Below, piece by piece: positions 8,283-41,344 of a DNA stretch of 41,344 bases (position 1 is the stretch's first letter; every line of letters starts with the position of its first letter). A model generated the notes under the pieces. It ran no database searches and was not told the origin of the DNA. It worked only from the letters and a program-made list of their open reading frames with translations. The position numbers were made by a program, and so were the translations under genes. Source of the stretch: a virus (lineage: Duplodnaviria; Heunggongvirae; Uroviricota; Caudoviricetes). The stretch spans positions 1 through 41,344 of the IMG/VR virus record IMGVR_UViG_2681813235_000001; one strand, written 5' to 3'.

Positions 8283-8822
8283 ATGCAACCACTTACATAC
8301 CAACAGACTAGCGGATTTAGCCCGACTGCGGTGATAAATCGTTCTCAAATAAAACAGGTGCCAGGCCACGAAAAAATCCGTGATGCCGTTCGCGCCTGGT
8401 CGGCTGCAGATAATCAGGATGTTGTTGCCGCACTCATTGTGAATGAGTATCGGGAGCAGGGCGGCGGCACCATCGATTTCCCTGATGATGTCAGCCGTGC
8501 ACGCCAGAAGCTGTTCCGCTTCCTCGATAACAAATTCGATTCTGAAAAATACCGAAATAACGTGCGTGAACTGACCCCGGCAATTCTGGCGGTACTACCG
8601 CTGGAATATCGCGGTTACCTGGTTGAGCAGGATAGCTTCATGACTCGGTTGGCTGAAATGGAAAAGGAACTCAGTGAGGCAAAACAGGCTGTCATTCTCA
8701 ACGCACCACGCCACCAGAAACTGAAGGAGATGAGTGAAGGCATTGTGTCGATGTTTCGTGTGGACCCGGACCTGGCTGGTCCATTGATGGCGATGGTCAC
8801 CACCATGCTGGGGGCAATATGA
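8283..8822 (+). CDS. YdaT-family protein (CII-position regulator)
   Basis: Shares EY-x-RQGGG and PAILA-x-LP blocks with my recollection of E. coli Rac YdaT; lies between Cro-like and O genes. Confidence 0.55.
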   Translation: MQPLTYQQTSGFSPTAVINRSQIKQVPGHEKIRDAVRAWSAADNQDVVAALIVNEYREQGGGTIDFPDDVSRARQKLFRFLDNKFDSEKYRNNVRELTPAILAVLPLEYRGYLVEQDSFMTRLAEMEKELSEAKQAVILNAPRHQKLKEMSEGIVSMFRVDPDLAGPLMAMVTTMLGAI

Positions 8823-8908
8823 CAGGTTCAGAAATGGCGAAAGCCGGTCTGCGCGAACAGAACCGACTTTCAGGTGCAAATCGTAACACACTCATTGCGG
8901 GAGGAATT

Positions 8909-9838
8909 ATGGCAAACACTGCTGAGATATTCAATTTTCCAGTGCCGGATGTGGCACAAAAGGAGCCGCGCGTGGCAGATCTCGATGATGGTTATACGCG
9001 CATTGCAAATGAGTTGCTGGAAGCTGTGATGCTGGCCGGATTAACACAGCACCAGCTTCTGGTCTTCCTGGCTGTCATGCGCAAAACATATGGCTTTAAT
9101 AAAAAACTGGATTGGGTGAGCAACGAGCAACTTTCCGAGTTGACCGGGATATTGCCGCACAAGTGTTCTGCTGCAAAAAGTGTTCTGGTAAAGCGTGGGA
9201 TTTTTATTCAGAGCGGGCGGAATATCGGCATTAATAATGTGGTCAGTGAATGGTCAACATTACCCGAATCAGGTAAGAAAAATAAAGTTTACCTGAAAGA
9301 GGTAAATTTACCTGAATCAGGTAAGAAAAGTTTACCCAAATCAGGTAAAGGCGTTTACCCGAATCAGGTAAACACAAAAGACAAACTAACAAAAGACAAT
9401 ATAAAACCTTTTTCGTCCGAGAATTCTGGCGAATCCTCTGACCAACCAGAAAACGATCTTCCTGTGGAGAAACCAGATGTTGCAATTCAGAGCGGCAGCA
9501 GGTGGGGGACAGCAGAAGACCTGACCGCCGCAGAGTGGATGTTTGACATGGTGAAGACCATCGCGCCATCAGCCAGAAAACCGAATTTTGCAGGGTGGGC
9601 TAACGATATCCGTCTGATGCGTGAACGTGATGGACGTAACCACCGCGACATGTGTGTACTGTTCCGCTGGGCCTGCCAGGACAACTTCTGGTCCGGTAAC
9701 GTGCTGAGTCCGGCCAAACTCCGCGACAAGTGGACCCAGCTCGAAATCAACCGGAACAAGCAACAGGCTGGCGTGACAGTCGGCAAACCAAAACTCGACC
9801 TGACAAACACTGACTGGATTTACGGGGTGGATCTATGA
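8909..9838 (+). CDS. O: replication initiator O (lambda O family)
   Basis: From ATG 8909 (GGGAGG upstream): MANTAEIFNF...VADLDDGY...RKTYGFNK parallels lambda O N-terminus; iterons inside the gene; stop/start overlap with P. Confidence 0.85.
   Translation: MANTAEIFNFPVPDVAQKEPRVADLDDGYTRIANELLEAVMLAGLTQHQLLVFLAVMRKTYGFNKKLDWVSNEQLSELTGILPHKCSAAKSVLVKRGIFIQSGRNIGINNVVSEWSTLPESGKKNKVYLKEVNLPESGKKSLPKSGKGVYPNQVNTKDKLTKDNIKPFSSENSGESSDQPENDLPVEKPDVAIQSGSRWGTAEDLTAAEWMFDMVKTIAPSARKPNFAGWANDIRLMRERDGRNHRDMCVLFRWACQDNFWSGNVLSPAKLRDKWTQLEINRNKQQAGVTVGKPKLDLTNTDWIYGVDL
9260..9373. repeat. ori iterons (about 5 copies of TTTACC(C/T)(G/A)AATCAGGTAA) with A-rich flank
   Basis: Copies at ~9260-9277, 9288-9306 (variant), 9307-9325, 9331-9350, 9354-9373, followed by A-rich tract 9374-9415; located inside O as in ori-lambda. 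Confidence 0.7.
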
Positions 9839-37529: not shown

Positions 37530-37563
37530 GCCATTCAATATCTGTAGCACTGGAGGTAATCAG

Positions 37564-37923
37564 ATGGGTTGGTGCGATGGTACTAACAACTATAATATAA
37601 GCTTCAGTGTCGCCGTTCGTCCTTGGGGTTATCGCCATGAAAACATTGATACATGGTTTAGCCGTTACTTTTATAAAAATGCCAACAGTGCCTTAACCAG
37701 TGCCGGTGGTCGCACCAGCAATAACACCGTTTCGGGACAAGAGGCAACATACTCACCGTTTTACGGCATTACTTCTCGTGCATTTACTATCCTATCGTGT
37801 AACGGTAGAGGTAATGGCAACAACAACGTACAGAAGTTACGCACAAACGGAACACATCGCGCCCCGATATCTGTCAACCGTTCGAACCGTTGCACTCTAC
37901 AAGACGCTCATGTAGAACGCTAG
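37564..37923 (+). CDS. hypothetical protein (start uncertain)
   Basis: ORF 37498-37923 trimmed to ATG 37564 (MGWCDGTNNY...); Asn/Ser/Thr/Gly-rich; could be a remnant. Confidence 0.25.
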   Translation: MGWCDGTNNYNISFSVAVRPWGYRHENIDTWFSRYFYKNANSALTSAGGRTSNNTVSGQEATYSPFYGITSRAFTILSCNGRGNGNNNVQKLRTNGTHRAPISVNRSNRCTLQDAHVER

Positions 37924-38256
37924 GGTTGGGTGGACGCGAATACCCGCACCCAAATATTCGGTATCGATGTACAGGACCCTCGACGCCCGGCAGGATTTTT
38001 GCAATGCACTTTGGCTGAAGGATTTATTCCTTTGGTTGGGGATTATGTATGACTGCAAGTGTAAGTAGTAAGCCTCTTATTCCAGGGGGGGCTCACCCTA
38101 AGGGCTTCAACTGTCGATAGTTCTTCGGGGCTTATTGGGTCGAATTCAAACCCACAAAAAATAGTGTGGGCGCAAGACGGGACGCCATATGAAAGTATTT
38201 TAGACCGTGTATGAATCCAGTGTAATAACGCCCCGGACCCATTTAACGGAACGGAT

Positions 38257-38730
38257 TTGTACATAAAGACAATCGACTACTATCGTATGCCTGCATTGGT
38301 ATTGGGTAGCTGCGCTTATAAGTTTATGCACCAGCAGGGCACGTTCACACCTATTGTCAAGGTTGGCGCTACAACACTAACACCTACAGGCACACCACAA
38401 GGTTTTTATGAGCGTATAGGGGATACTTTTAAATGCTGGATAAATTTTTATGAGAATGGTGTTGATTTAAGAATTCTTTCTGGGCAATTCAAAATTGAGG
38501 GGTTGCCATTTGCTATAACGTCGTTAGATAGCACCACAAGCTTCCCTGTTGTTCACGCTGCATATATTAAAACAACGGCTATCGGCATGTCGGCCACAAT
38601 GTCAGGGACCACCATTAACCTCAGAAAGAATTATAGTTCTTCCTTGTTTAATGGCAGTGACTTTATCTCAAGCTTGGAGCATTTCATTAAGTTTAAAATA
38701 GAGTCCACGGTTGCAAGAACAGCAGTATAA
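38257..38730 (+). CDS. hypothetical protein (Thr/Ser-rich)
   Basis: 157-aa ORF followed by a terminator shared with the convergent acyltransferase gene. Confidence 0.35.
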   Translation: MYIKTIDYYRMPALVLGSCAYKFMHQQGTFTPIVKVGATTLTPTGTPQGFYERIGDTFKCWINFYENGVDLRILSGQFKIEGLPFAITSLDSTTSFPVVHAAYIKTTAIGMSATMSGTTINLRKNYSSSLFNGSDFISSLEHFIKFKIESTVARTAV

Positions 38731-38731
38731 T

Positions 38732-38760
38732 AAAAGCGCCCGGTTGGGCGCTTTTATTTC
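38732..38760. terminator. bidirectional intrinsic terminator between convergent genes
   Basis: AAAGCGCCC-GGTT-GGGCGCTTT flanked by A/T tracts on both sides. Confidence 0.5.
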
Positions 38761-39695
38761 TATAGCAAATACTTTACTTTGCTATTTAGCTTAACTAATA
38801 CGTAAGAAACAGGAACTAGAACCCCAATAACAAAAAGATATCGTAGTGCACTTAATTTGTCATCGTATACATAATCCTGCCCAATGAATATTATTGCGGG
38901 ATGAACTAAATAAACAGCCGTAGCAAAGGAAGATAGGTGTTTATACTTTCCAAGAATATCAATCTTCATTATGTAAGTGAACAATAACGGCGAAATAAGC
39001 AATAATGAAAACATCATATCTAATTGCTTATCTGCACCGAATAACTTCAGATTAAGATAAGATTCTGCAATCAACAATGCAAAGGCTGATGCGACTATCG
39101 GCAAGCCATAATTTTTTACATTACTTATGCCAGCTCTGCGGATAAGTAAACCAATGATCATAAATGGAAGACAGTCAAATAAGAAGTTTCTATGGGATGG
39201 GGTAAATGCAAGAACCTTTGATATAATTCCGCTGAAAACATTTAGGTTTGCAGCATATTGAAGTAAGGTGCCAGATATATATAAAATCATTGACAAAATT
39301 ATCAAGGTGCTTGCTGGTTTGCCCATCAATAAATAAAGTAGGCATCCAGCCAAGATTACTCCAGTTATATACCATAAAGCATAATAACCATTAAATATAT
39401 TTATTAGAGTAGTAACAACTCCTGCTTTACCAAGCCAAAATGGGAGGTATATAATAGACCATACGACATATAAAATAAGCATCCTGGAAATCCACTTTAT
39501 GAAGTCTTTCCCTGTTTCAATTCTAGTAAAAAAATAACCAGTTATTATAAGAAATAGAGGTACTGATAATCTAAAAATTCCGTTAACAAGGAGGTGACTT
39601 ACTGTTGTATTAAGCTCTCTAAGAATATCAAGGTGTATAAATACAACAAAAAATGCCGCAGTAACTTTTAATATATCTATTGATAGATGTCTCAT
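38760..39695 (-). CDS. acyltransferase-3 family integral membrane protein (putative O-antigen acetyltransferase, lysogenic conversion)
   Basis: Polytopic membrane protein with many hydrophobic helices, AT-rich, next to the integrase, the usual site for oac-type conversion genes; first ATG at 39695 (ORF from GTG at 39710). Confidence 0.65.
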   Translation of the reverse strand: MRHLSIDILKVTAAFFVVFIHLDILRELNTTVSHLLVNGIFRLSVPLFLIITGYFFTRIETGKDFIKWISRMLILYVVWSIIYLPFWLGKAGVVTTLINIFNGYYALWYITGVILAGCLLYLLMGKPASTLIILSMILYISGTLLQYAANLNVFSGIISKVLAFTPSHRNFLFDCLPFMIIGLLIRRAGISNVKNYGLPIVASAFALLIAESYLNLKLFGADKQLDMMFSLLLISPLLFTYIMKIDILGKYKHLSSFATAVYLVHPAIIFIGQDYVYDDKLSALRYLFVIGVLVPVSYVLVKLNSKVKYLL

Positions 39696-39708
39696 TGATA
39701 GATGTCTC
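39679..39708. repeat. perfect 15-bp tandem duplication spanning the acyltransferase start
   Basis: ATTGATAGATGTCTC at 39679-39693 repeated at 39694-39708; on the coding strand gives GTG-AGACATCTATCA / ATG-AGACATCTATCA (MRHLS-MRHLS). Confidence 0.8.
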
Positions 39709-39988
39709 ACATGCGTCTAAGAAGGAAATTGGCAGTATTTTATGAATTATGACTTTAAAATGATTAACAATCAACATATTACATCATTTGCACTAGTAGC
39801 CTTGATCATAGAATCAGCATCTGTTTGGCCTGTCGTTCACGGCATAGACATTCACAAGGTTATTTAACCAAGCGCAACTATATCTTGCCAGACAAATCAT
39901 TCTGACTGCGGTTTTGTGTTTTTTAACTTGATCGACTCCCGGCTTTAGCAATGCTGTGTATTTATTCAGTATAAATGGAGGGCGGGTT

Positions 39989-40153
39989 ATGGCACGCAGA
40001 TACGAGATACCCTGCGCTTTTACGGCAGCAATCAAATCAGAACCAAGTGGTCGCAAGATGGTGTCAACGCAGGACTTTGTAACACAGCGGGCAAAGGTCA
40101 ACAGGCACTGGTCACAAGTGAATATTTGTAGTAATTGTGACGATCATAATTAA
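39989..40153 (+). CDS. hypothetical small protein next to integrase (very uncertain)
   Basis: ATG 39989 preceded by GGAGGG at 7 nt; 54 aa; no motif recognised. Confidence 0.2.
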   Translation: MARRYEIPCAFTAAIKSEPSGRKMVSTQDFVTQRAKVNRHWSQVNICSNCDDHN

Positions 40154-40186: not shown

Positions 40187-41344
40187 TTACTCCACCTTCC
40201 CATCAAGCCAATCCGCCCACCACTGCATCATTTCTCTGCGCTTATCTAGATACTGAGCATGGTTGTAAATCCCGCGCACAGATCCGCCGTTGGCATGTGC
40301 CAGTTGCACTTCAATAGCATCAGCAGGCCATTCGTGCTCGTTCATAATCGTGCTGAATTCATGCCTGAATCCGTGACCGCTTTCCAGACCTTCATAGCCG
40401 ATTTGTTTGATCACAAGCAGTACAGCGTTCTCGCAAATTGGCTTCTTCTTATCGTTGCGCCCGGCAAAAACAAACTCTGATACTGGTTTGGTGATTGAGC
40501 TTAGCGTAGTGAGAAGTTCAACCACCTGGTCTGACATAGGAACCACATGAATTTTGCGTCCCTTCATCACACTGGCGTCGATGGTGATAATCCTGTTTTC
40601 AAAATCGACGTTCTTCCATTGCATGGAACGAAGCTCTTTCGTTCTTAGGGCGGTGTAGCGTAAAATTTTAGTAGCAATGAGCGATACGATACTTCCTGAA
40701 AATGTTGCCAGTGCTTTGTTGAATGCCGGGATCTGGTCTGCAGGAAGAAACGGGAAGTTCTTCTTGCGGTATCCCTTCATGGCGTCAGCAAGGTCAGGTG
40801 CCGGGTTATATTTAGCCCTACCGGTGACAATAGCGTAACGGAAAACCTCGCCGCATCTTCTGCGGGCTTTGTTGGCTCGCTCCATTGCACCGCGATCTTC
40901 AAATCTGCGGATTACTTCCAGCAGTTGCATCGGCTCAATATCCTGAATTTCAATGCCGCCGATGATAGGTAAAATGTCGTCATCAAACATTTTGGCAAGT
41001 TCAGTTGCATAGCCTACTGACCAGACTTGCTTCTTGTGCTCGTACCATTCCTTGTAAATCGCACTAAAGGAATTGTTGTTAGACGAAGCCTTTTTCGCCT
41101 TTACCGGATCGATGCCGACCGAGATGTCTTTCCTCGCAGTCCATGCTTTATCCCTTGCCTCTTGCAAAGTCATAAGCGGATATTTTCCGACGGTCAGGAT
41201 TTTCTCCTTACCGTCAATCTTGTAGCGAAGCTGCCATACCTTTTTCCCTGACACAGGGACATAAAGGTACAGGCCATTACCATCGAGAAGGCGGTATGGT
41301 TTTTCTTTCGGCTTTGCTGCTTCAATCTGCTTAACGGTGAGCAT
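40187..41344 (-). CDS. tyrosine integrase, P4-like family
   Basis: 385 aa; N-terminal MLTVKQIEAAKPKEKPYRLLDGNGLYLYV...GKKVWQLRY typical of P4-type integrase arm-binding domains; C-terminal HGFRHEFST...H..G...Y region consistent with the tyrosine-recombinase catalytic domain; start codon is the last 3 nt of the window. Confidence 0.85.
   Translation of the reverse strand: MLTVKQIEAAKPKEKPYRLLDGNGLYLYVPVSGKKVWQLRYKIDGKEKILTVGKYPLMTLQEARDKAWTARKDISVGIDPVKAKKASSNNNSFSAIYKEWYEHKKQVWSVGYATELAKMFDDDILPIIGGIEIQDIEPMQLLEVIRRFEDRGAMERANKARRRCGEVFRYAIVTGRAKYNPAPDLADAMKGYRKKNFPFLPADQIPAFNKALATFSGSIVSLIATKILRYTALRTKELRSMQWKNVDFENRIITIDASVMKGRKIHVVPMSDQVVELLTTLSSITKPVSEFVFAGRNDKKKPICENAVLLVIKQIGYEGLESGHGFRHEFSTIMNEHEWPADAIEVQLAHANGGSVRGIYNHAQYLDKRREMMQWWADWLDGKVE

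Follow-up and report, generated by a model that had tools for sequence, protein, structure and literature searches.

What does the AT-rich gene beside the integrase of an Escherichia coli prophage encode, and where does its translation begin when its 5' end is duplicated? Serotype-converting phages carry O-antigen acetyltransferase genes (oac) beside the integrase gene and attachment site (int/att), and a gene in such a position lies in IMG/VR record IMGVR_UViG_2681813235_000001, a tailed-phage sequence of 41,344 bp that we analyzed over its full length (the window). The original prediction held that this gene encodes an acyltransferase-3 (AT3) membrane protein and that a perfect 15-bp tandem duplication over its 5' end creates two in-frame starts. 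Taken jointly, our results make it fairly probable that the locus is an AT3 "moron" cassette in the serotype-conversion slot, that its product acylates a surface polysaccharide, and that its start has been moved to an ATG at the junction of a fixed duplication. It is a rare new member of a well-known type of phage moron and leaves current concepts unchanged.

The AT3 protein and its genomic slot

The minus-strand open reading frame (ORF) at 38760..39710 specifies 316 amino acids when read from a GTG and 311 when read from the ATG at 39695. Its predicted membership of the acyltransferase-3 family was confirmed by profile search, with Pfam PF01757 (Acyl_transf_3) matching at E=1.8e-19 and 70.4 bits (gathering score 31 bits) over profile positions 3-325 of 326, which is near full length. 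The AlphaFold2 (AF2) model reached a predicted local distance difference test score (pLDDT) of 88.4 and a predicted template modeling score (pTM) of 0.90; it contains ten long helices, and this predicted structure has the ten-transmembrane-helix fold of AT3 and other transmembrane acyltransferases (TmAT). Neither sequence search nor Foldseek returned a solved-structure relative, and the only strong matches among solved structures were the transmembrane acyltransferases HGSNAT and GWT1. A search of BFVD gave one match, to an unnamed 637-aa protein. The gene product is a standalone ten-helix AT3 acyltransferase with no fused racemase or SGNH domain.

An R-X10-H motif in the first transmembrane helix (TMH1; Arg14 and His25 of OafB) has been called absolutely conserved in AT3 proteins, and an RXXR motif lies in TMH3 at the cytoplasmic face (PMC9833829). 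In the protein studied here the TMH1 histidine, His21, is invariant across the subfamily, and the residue 11 positions before it is an invariant lysine, K10, not arginine. The same K-X10-H arrangement is present in OacD of phage SfII (KC736978.1 18806-19855), an experimentally proven O-acetyltransferase, so that the lysine variant is compatible with activity and the R-X10-H definition in the literature is too strict. At the RXXR site only the second arginine, R71, is present, with K67 before it (KWISR), and hhalign pairs KWISR with KRARR of Oac. Besides K10-X10-H21, R42 and VPxF are invariant within the subfamily, while R71 is common and not invariant.

The ORF and the integrase gene, which closes the window, are 490 bp apart, and the expected placement beside int at the prophage end held. 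The integrase, IntS, shares 379 of 384 residues (99%) with Int of the podovirus Sf6, and DNA homology between the window and Sf6 ends at the int stop codon. E. coli genomes have the element at the tRNA-Arg gene argW beside yfdC, both just past int. In Sf6 the locus reads tailspike (+), terminator, oac (-), promoter, int (-), and the order in the window is identical. Over its structural half the window shares 97% identity with the Shigella serotype-converting myoviruses SfII, SfI, SfIV and SfV; in SfII the gene for the acyltransferase OacD occupies the equivalent slot, after the tail-fibre assembly gene and in convergent orientation. The carrier is a mosaic temperate phage in which an SfII-like myovirus body is combined with an Sf6-type integrase module at argW. 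GC content falls to a trough of 31-36% over the AT3 ORF versus roughly 50% across the prophage. As expected of an Oac-type gene, it stands next to int/att and outside the structural operons, with a predicted, conserved promoter and a terminator of its own.

The likeness to oac does not extend to the protein sequence. In an hhalign comparison with Sf6 Oac only about 80 N-terminal residues aligned, at 8.7% probability and 22% identity, and the profile comparison with SfII OacD aligned only the first ~80 residues (8% probability, 24% identity). A tblastn search of 50,697 phage records found no relative except one unannotated match at 26%. On this evidence (hhalign 8-9%, tblastn) the protein was excluded as an orthologue of the characterised Oac, OacB, OacC or OacD, or of any GenBank phage acetyltransferase. 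Sf6 Oac and the AT3 protein are alike in being standalone, about 310-330 aa long and ten-helical, and in sharing a locus that runs from tailspike and terminator through a convergent AT3 gene, equipped with its own promoter, to the argW integrase; they differ in that Oac has R-X10-H and the arginine cluster KRARR. With OacD the protein shares the phage backbone, the relative position and the TMH1 lysine, whereas SfII adds gtrA-gtrB-gtrII and has a different integrase.

Relatives of any kind are few. Among 5.8 billion proteins searched there were 42 matches, only six of them at least 60% identical, and no relative above 46% was found in species-representative genomes, where the best were Chryseobacterium proteins at ~40% identity. 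The gene is present in three of 5,426 complete E. coli genomes by megablast, and sensitive blastn gave the same three. By these counts the subfamily is rare.

The 15-bp duplication and the start codon

In gene orientation copy 1 of the repeat spans 39709-39695 and copy 2 spans 39694-39680, with one extra matching base. The sequence reads catG-TGAGACATCTATCAA-TGAGACATCTATCAA-Tagat, giving the codons GTG AGA CAT CTA TCA ATG AGA CAT CTA TCA and the peptide MRHLS-MRHLS; a perfect 15-bp tandem with two in-frame starts, GTG and ATG, had been noted before, and Tandem Repeats Finder reports the tandem. It is the only perfect tandem of period at least 15 in the 41-kb window, and 20 shuffles of the window produced no repeat of comparable quality.

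The copy number is two in the window and likewise in each of the 14 further assemblies that carry this allele. These are three complete genomes, from New Zealand, Switzerland and Ecuador, with the identical duplication, and 11 assemblies from NCBI, ENA and Logan, together representing five alleles that differ by at most 1%. A single copy is present in five relatives (L004, L005, L006, L079 and L095; 80-88% nucleotide identity), all with a GTG start and AGAGG five bases upstream. The outgroup, at 60% identity, also has one copy and a GTG at the equivalent position, with no AGAGG. L095 came from a metagenome pattern scan that could detect single-copy relatives only, its pattern ending in GTTG where the window allele has GTTA. 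One copy in the five relatives and the outgroup identifies the duplication as a derived 15-bp insertion, and two copies in all independent assemblies indicate neither an artefact nor a variable repeat. Judged from this sequence comparison, the duplication is a fixed, derived mutation of the lineage.

A slipped-strand artefact had been one of the options offered for the repeat. A sequencing or assembly error has the short length as the sole point in its favour, and the identical sequence in three complete genomes and 11 further assemblies excludes it for all practical purposes. The repeat could also make this a contingency locus subject to phase variation, on the model of the heptanucleotide repeats within the 5' end of neuO in an E. 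coli K1 prophage. Both cases have a tandem repeat at the coding 5' end of a prophage-borne acyltransferase gene, and the NeuO precedent is cited in the AT3 review. The present unit, however, is 15 bp long, a multiple of three, so that gain or loss of a copy would keep the frame; the copies number just two, and comparison across isolates revealed no variation, with two in all 15 sequences and one in all relatives. NeuO, from the K1 prophage CUS-3, is a soluble, unrelated acetyltransferase whose gene has many 7-bp units in variable number that switch the frame, unlike the two invariant, in-frame units found here. We consider phase variation very improbable at this locus.

The downstream ATG is absent from the single-copy sequence: its A closes copy 1 and its TG opens copy 2 (..TCAA/TGAGA.., the slash marking the junction). 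It opens MRHLSIDILK..., and every homologue begins MRxLSID. The Prokaryotic Genome Annotation Pipeline (PGAP) likewise places the start at this ATG in each of the three complete genomes. The 14 other assemblies all have TTAGAC where the relatives have their Shine-Dalgarno (SD) site. The calculated duplex with the anti-SD sequence is -5.8 kcal/mol in the relatives, +0.5 at the GTG of the window and -2.7 at the junction ATG, the last through GAG at 9-nt spacing. An interpretation of the SD difference as a 2-bp deletion was dropped, the MAFFT alignment being gapless with substitutions from AGAGG to TTAGA; no mutational path is claimed.

We propose that the ancestral gene used the GTG start five bases after an AGAGG SD site. 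In the window lineage this site is lost, and the duplication junction supplies an ATG 15 nt downstream with the canonical MRHLSID N-terminus; GAG, from the former GTGAGA, now stands 9 nt before that ATG and may serve as a weak ribosome-binding element. The duplication would have converted an SD-dependent GUG start into an AUG start with the protein unchanged. Translation most likely starts at the junction ATG 39695, and the duplication may have been a selected repair or a tolerated change. The earlier suggestion that the repeat modulates translation initiation pointed in the right direction and was too vague, since comparison with the relatives has the junction creating an ATG while the ancestral GTG has lost its SD site. 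The region would offer a clean natural case of a short tandem duplication making a start codon while leaving the protein unchanged. It also holds a lesson for annotation: the longest ORF, 316 aa from the GTG, is unlikely to be the real product.

Initiation at GTG 39710, alone or beside the ATG product, would yield a 316-aa protein beginning MRHLS-MRHLS. This GTG is the ancestral start and is in frame, and the extension, being short and cytoplasmic, would probably be harmless. On the other hand, the sequence upstream of it has no anti-SD complementarity in this lineage (+0.5 kcal/mol), no homologue carries the MRHLS extension, and GUG is a weaker initiator than AUG. Use of the GTG is in our judgment improbable.

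The duplication could instead be neutral slippage that hitch-hiked to fixation, with translation about equal with or without it, for example by SD-independent initiation on an AU-rich, unstructured leader. Folding of the window and two relatives found no structured RNA in the leader (z 0.1-0.4), with Rfam giving only sub-threshold, terminator-driven matches; lack of significant structure in the leader (z = 0.25) favours SD-independent initiation. The lineage is also young, with alleles differing by no more than 1%, so that descent suffices for a uniform copy number, and the failure to find intermediate alleles (see below) counts for this explanation as well. Against it, the junction makes exactly an in-frame ATG and a canonical N-terminus alongside the loss of the SD site, which would be a notable coincidence for two independent neutral events. 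We regard neutral slippage as the less likely account and continue to favour a functional move of the start to the junction ATG.

An ATG-TGA start-stop pair (cATGTGAga) at window positions 39708-39713 (-) overlaps the ancestral GTG and is conserved in L004, L005, L006, L079 and L095. Its spacing to AGAGG is short (3 nt), and the pair is probably incidental.

A mobile cassette and selection on the gene

The gene belongs to a unit of ~1.2 kb that is also carried by phages sharing 92% identity with coliphage 186, where it has inserted at the portal gene's end (coordinates of all features are collected in Table 1). In one of these, L004, the 186 homology stops exactly where homology to the window starts, and the portal ORF runs 16 codons into the cassette. 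In another contig the cassette has a UmuD-like gene as its neighbour. The ~50 bp upstream of the promoter had been considered as a fossil of a 186-like portal gene; this was rejected, as the L004 portal ORF instead enters cassette sequence.

All copies of the cassette keep the shared terminator and ~40 codons of a tailspike C-terminus (...LSLRKNYSSSxFNGSDFISSLEHFI...TVARTA and two stops). This fossil is retained even in 186-like phages that themselves have no tailspike (for example L004 2236-2389), and equivalents are present in L079, L095, L006 and L007. The longer remnant in the window matches the 3' part of the 863-aa tail protein of L007, and PHROG tail-protein matches were obtained for both ORF fragments of the remnant and for the L007 protein. 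The remnant stands behind the tail-fibre assembly gene.

In a comparison of five sequences, the -35 hexamer of the predicted promoter is invariant, the -10 pattern NANAAT and a TCATA are conserved, and the spacer is variable; transcription from this promoter is predicted to begin around 39739. The pairing of the terminator stem is kept in relatives by compensatory changes (GCGCCC/GGGCGC, GGCGCC/GGCGCC, ACGCCC/GGGCGT). A terminator scan program called none at the cassette, whereas direct folding gave a strong one; the A/U-extended stem probably absorbs the T-run that the program seeks. With the tailspike fossil, the shared covarying terminator and the conserved promoter, the unit looks like an autonomous moron, carrying its own predicted promoter, gene and bidirectional terminator, that was born convergent to a tailspike gene. 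Its linkage to the tailspike 3' end would illustrate the joint movement of receptor-binding and receptor-modifying genes.

Table 1. Features at the acyltransferase end of the window (positions in the 41,344-bp sequence)
Feature	Position	Strand	Basis or remark
Tailspike 3' remnant, frameshifted, ~1.2 kb, convergent on the AT3 gene	37547..38730	+	66% nucleotide identity to the L007 tail protein gene
Mobile cassette: ~125-bp tailspike fossil, terminator, AT3 gene, leader, promoter, ~45 bp upstream	38606..39821	-	blastn against L004 and L079
Bidirectional intrinsic terminator, AUAAAAGCGCCC-AACC-GGGCGCUUUUAU, between the AT3 stop and the convergent tailspike remnant	38729..38758		-23.7 kcal/mol, z = -5.3
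AT3 coding sequence, 311 aa, stop included	38760..39695	-	start at junction ATG 39695-39693
Perfect 15-bp tandem duplication	39679..39709		Tandem Repeats Finder: period 15, 2.1 copies, 100% matches
Ancestral GTG (39710-39708) and four codons, now leader or possible 5-residue N-terminal extension	39696..39710	-	relatives start at this GTG
Lost Shine-Dalgarno site, TTAGACGCAT in the window versus (C/T)AGAGGC(G/A)CAT in relatives	39711..39720	-	alignment
Predicted sigma-70 promoter: TTGATT, 17-nt spacer, CATAAT	39746..39774	-	consensus scan, 9/12 matches
phrog_3893 small-gene remnant, first 42 codons, divergent from the AT3 gene	39989..40114	+	71% amino acid identity to the 79-aa protein of L005
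IntS, argW-specific, Sf6 type, marking the prophage end	40187..41344	-	Pfam integrase domains

The ratio of non-synonymous to synonymous substitution rates (dN/dS) of the AT3 gene against its relatives is 0.11-0.16. All five alleles found across the 15 sequences have an intact gene; they show 3-6 synonymous changes and 3-5 non-synonymous ones, mostly conservative, and the gene is kept in two prophages otherwise decayed by IS1. At the sequence level these comparisons show purifying selection. The intact ORF, its synonymous and conservative bias and its survival in IS1-gutted prophages argue that the gene may still be expressed and useful.

An opposite possibility is that the gene is silent and decaying, with the loss of the SD site and the duplication as early steps of pseudogenisation. 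The replacement for the lost site is weak, the neighbouring tailspike and small divergent genes are already pseudogenes, and AT-rich DNA of this kind is, from its GC content, likely silenced by H-NS. Yet the ORF is intact in all five alleles and 15 sequences with a synonymous-rich pattern, the gene is retained where the rest of the prophage is deleted, and the predicted promoter is intact. Decay seems quite unlikely to us, and a gene maintained by selection is the preferred reading.

In L001 (NZ_CM132251.1 1491513-1505103) and L002 (NZ_CP128581.1 1483416-1497006) the prophage is mostly deleted or interrupted by IS1, with the AT3 gene and intS intact. In 21AR0133 it is down to a 157-aa tailspike fragment, the AT3 gene and intS, beside IS1 and a truncated dsdX. 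The small phrog_3893 remnant on the promoter side of the gene is broken off at the junction with the Sf6-type int module, and PGAP leaves 39989-40114 unannotated; in L005 the 79-aa relative of this protein adjoins the AT3 gene.

The probable acceptor and comparison with known systems

An AT3 protein of this kind would carry an acyl group, probably the acetyl of acetyl-CoA, through the inner membrane to a surface polysaccharide. The host O-antigen would be the most likely acceptor, and its modification would alter how phages and antibodies see the cell; we infer O-antigen acylation from genomic context. A surface polysaccharide is favoured by the serotype-conversion slot and by the tailspike link in every context. 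It is also favoured by the 60% relative L007, in which the AT3 gene is directly convergent to the tailspike of an epsilon15-like phage, and by a 37% homologue that is the last gene of a Wzx/Wzy/glycosyltransferase polysaccharide cluster.

The acceptor could instead be enterobacterial common antigen, colanic acid, capsule, periplasmic glucans or peptidoglycan, or the protein could work as a transporter, a role suggested for the membrane domain of VanT. The range of acceptors used by AT3 proteins is wide (PMC9833829), the best NCBIfam match is the VanT membrane domain (E=1.8e-15, far under its cutoff), and orthology to a characterised O-antigen acetyltransferase was not detectable. However, the slot is the serotype-conversion position of Sf6 and SfII-type phages, the linkage to the tailspike 3' end is persistent, a homologue lies inside a Wzx/Wzy cluster, and no racemase or SGNH domain is fused to the protein. 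Such other roles appear possible and rather less likely than acylation of a surface polysaccharide, which we continue to prefer.

Several observations weigh against the combined reading of surface-polysaccharide acylation and a moved start. The textbook AT3 motifs are only partly kept, with K for R in R-X10-H and K67-x3-R71 for RXXR. Among named proteins the nearest by sequence is VanT, through its membrane domain, which has a role other than sugar acylation, and the homologues in Chryseobacterium have conserved housekeeping genes (DUF808, dnaJ, grpE) as neighbours, a setting uninformative on acceptor or function. No allele with only one of the two changes (SD site lost with a single copy, or duplication with an intact SD site) was found in an IMG/VR pattern scan, which returned a known 186-like relative and three chance matches, or by sensitive blastn of complete E. 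coli genomes, which returned the same three genomes; the order of events, and hence the "repair" scenario, is thus deduced rather than observed. Finally, upstream of the junction ATG only 3 bp (GAG) pair with the anti-SD sequence, and at long spacing, which predicts weak initiation and possibly low expression.

A bolder interpretation is that the protein founds a new phage-borne subfamily of surface-polysaccharide acyltransferases, marked by K-X10-H and with Chryseobacterium proteins (~40%) as nearest cellular kin. The 1.2-kb cassette and tailspike 3' end would then be moving among epsilon15-like, 186-like and SfII/Sf6-mosaic phages and conferring a new O-antigen modification, possibly of O25 type, and the duplication would be an adaptive repair restoring an AUG start and the N-terminus after loss of the SD site. 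We offer this full scenario tentatively and think it unlikely to hold in every part.

The convergence of the L007 gene on an epsilon15-like tailspike recalls the seroconversion modules of epsilon15, PhiV10 and Tyrion. PhiV10 carries an oac homologue that modifies the O157 antigen, and Tyrion carries homologues (AT3 review). The difference is that no deposited genome of an epsilon15-like phage has a BLAST-detectable relative of the AT3 protein. Within the wider AT3/TmAT superfamily (OafA, OafB, OatA, WecH; HGSNAT, GWT1) the protein is typical in its Pfam match, ten-helix fold, TMH1 histidine and basic residue 11 positions before it; it departs from the superfamily in having no SGNH partner domain, a reduced RXXR motif and a rare subfamily.

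If the O-antigen is acylated, the gene would be an unrecognised modifier of serotype and phage receptor, present at low frequency in E. coli (3 of 5,426 complete genomes). Two of the three complete-genome hosts, the two that could be typed, are of the O25 family, and the same cassette occurs in unrelated temperate phages of other enterobacteria. O25 is a serogroup targeted by vaccines against extra-intestinal pathogenic E. coli (ExPEC). The link to the O25 family comes from two genomes only and may serve as a lead.

The host O-antigen loci compared were L102 (NZ_CP128581.1 1842087-1855513), L103 (NZ_AP027619.1 1757299-1775041) and L101 (NZ_CM132251.1 1855410-1862842). By gene content, the two O25-family wzx/wzy clusters are one O25b-like with wbbJ and one O25a-like with fnlA/wbjC/wecB, and in both the annotation marks wzy as frameshifted. 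In the third host the O-antigen cluster has collapsed, with rfbBDAC followed by fragments and then gnd.

Two further repeats were observed. In L007 a short tandem repeat (AATGTACA x ~3.5) occupies the contig end (1-30), some 160 bp upstream of the AT3 gene there. In the window, two to three copies of imperfect 19-23-bp direct repeats (TTTACCCGAATCAGGTAAAAAAG-like) form a cluster at 9260-9399 within the ORF at 8819-9838 (+), and by its sequence this cluster resembles an iteron-type replication origin inside a lambda O-like gene of the early region.

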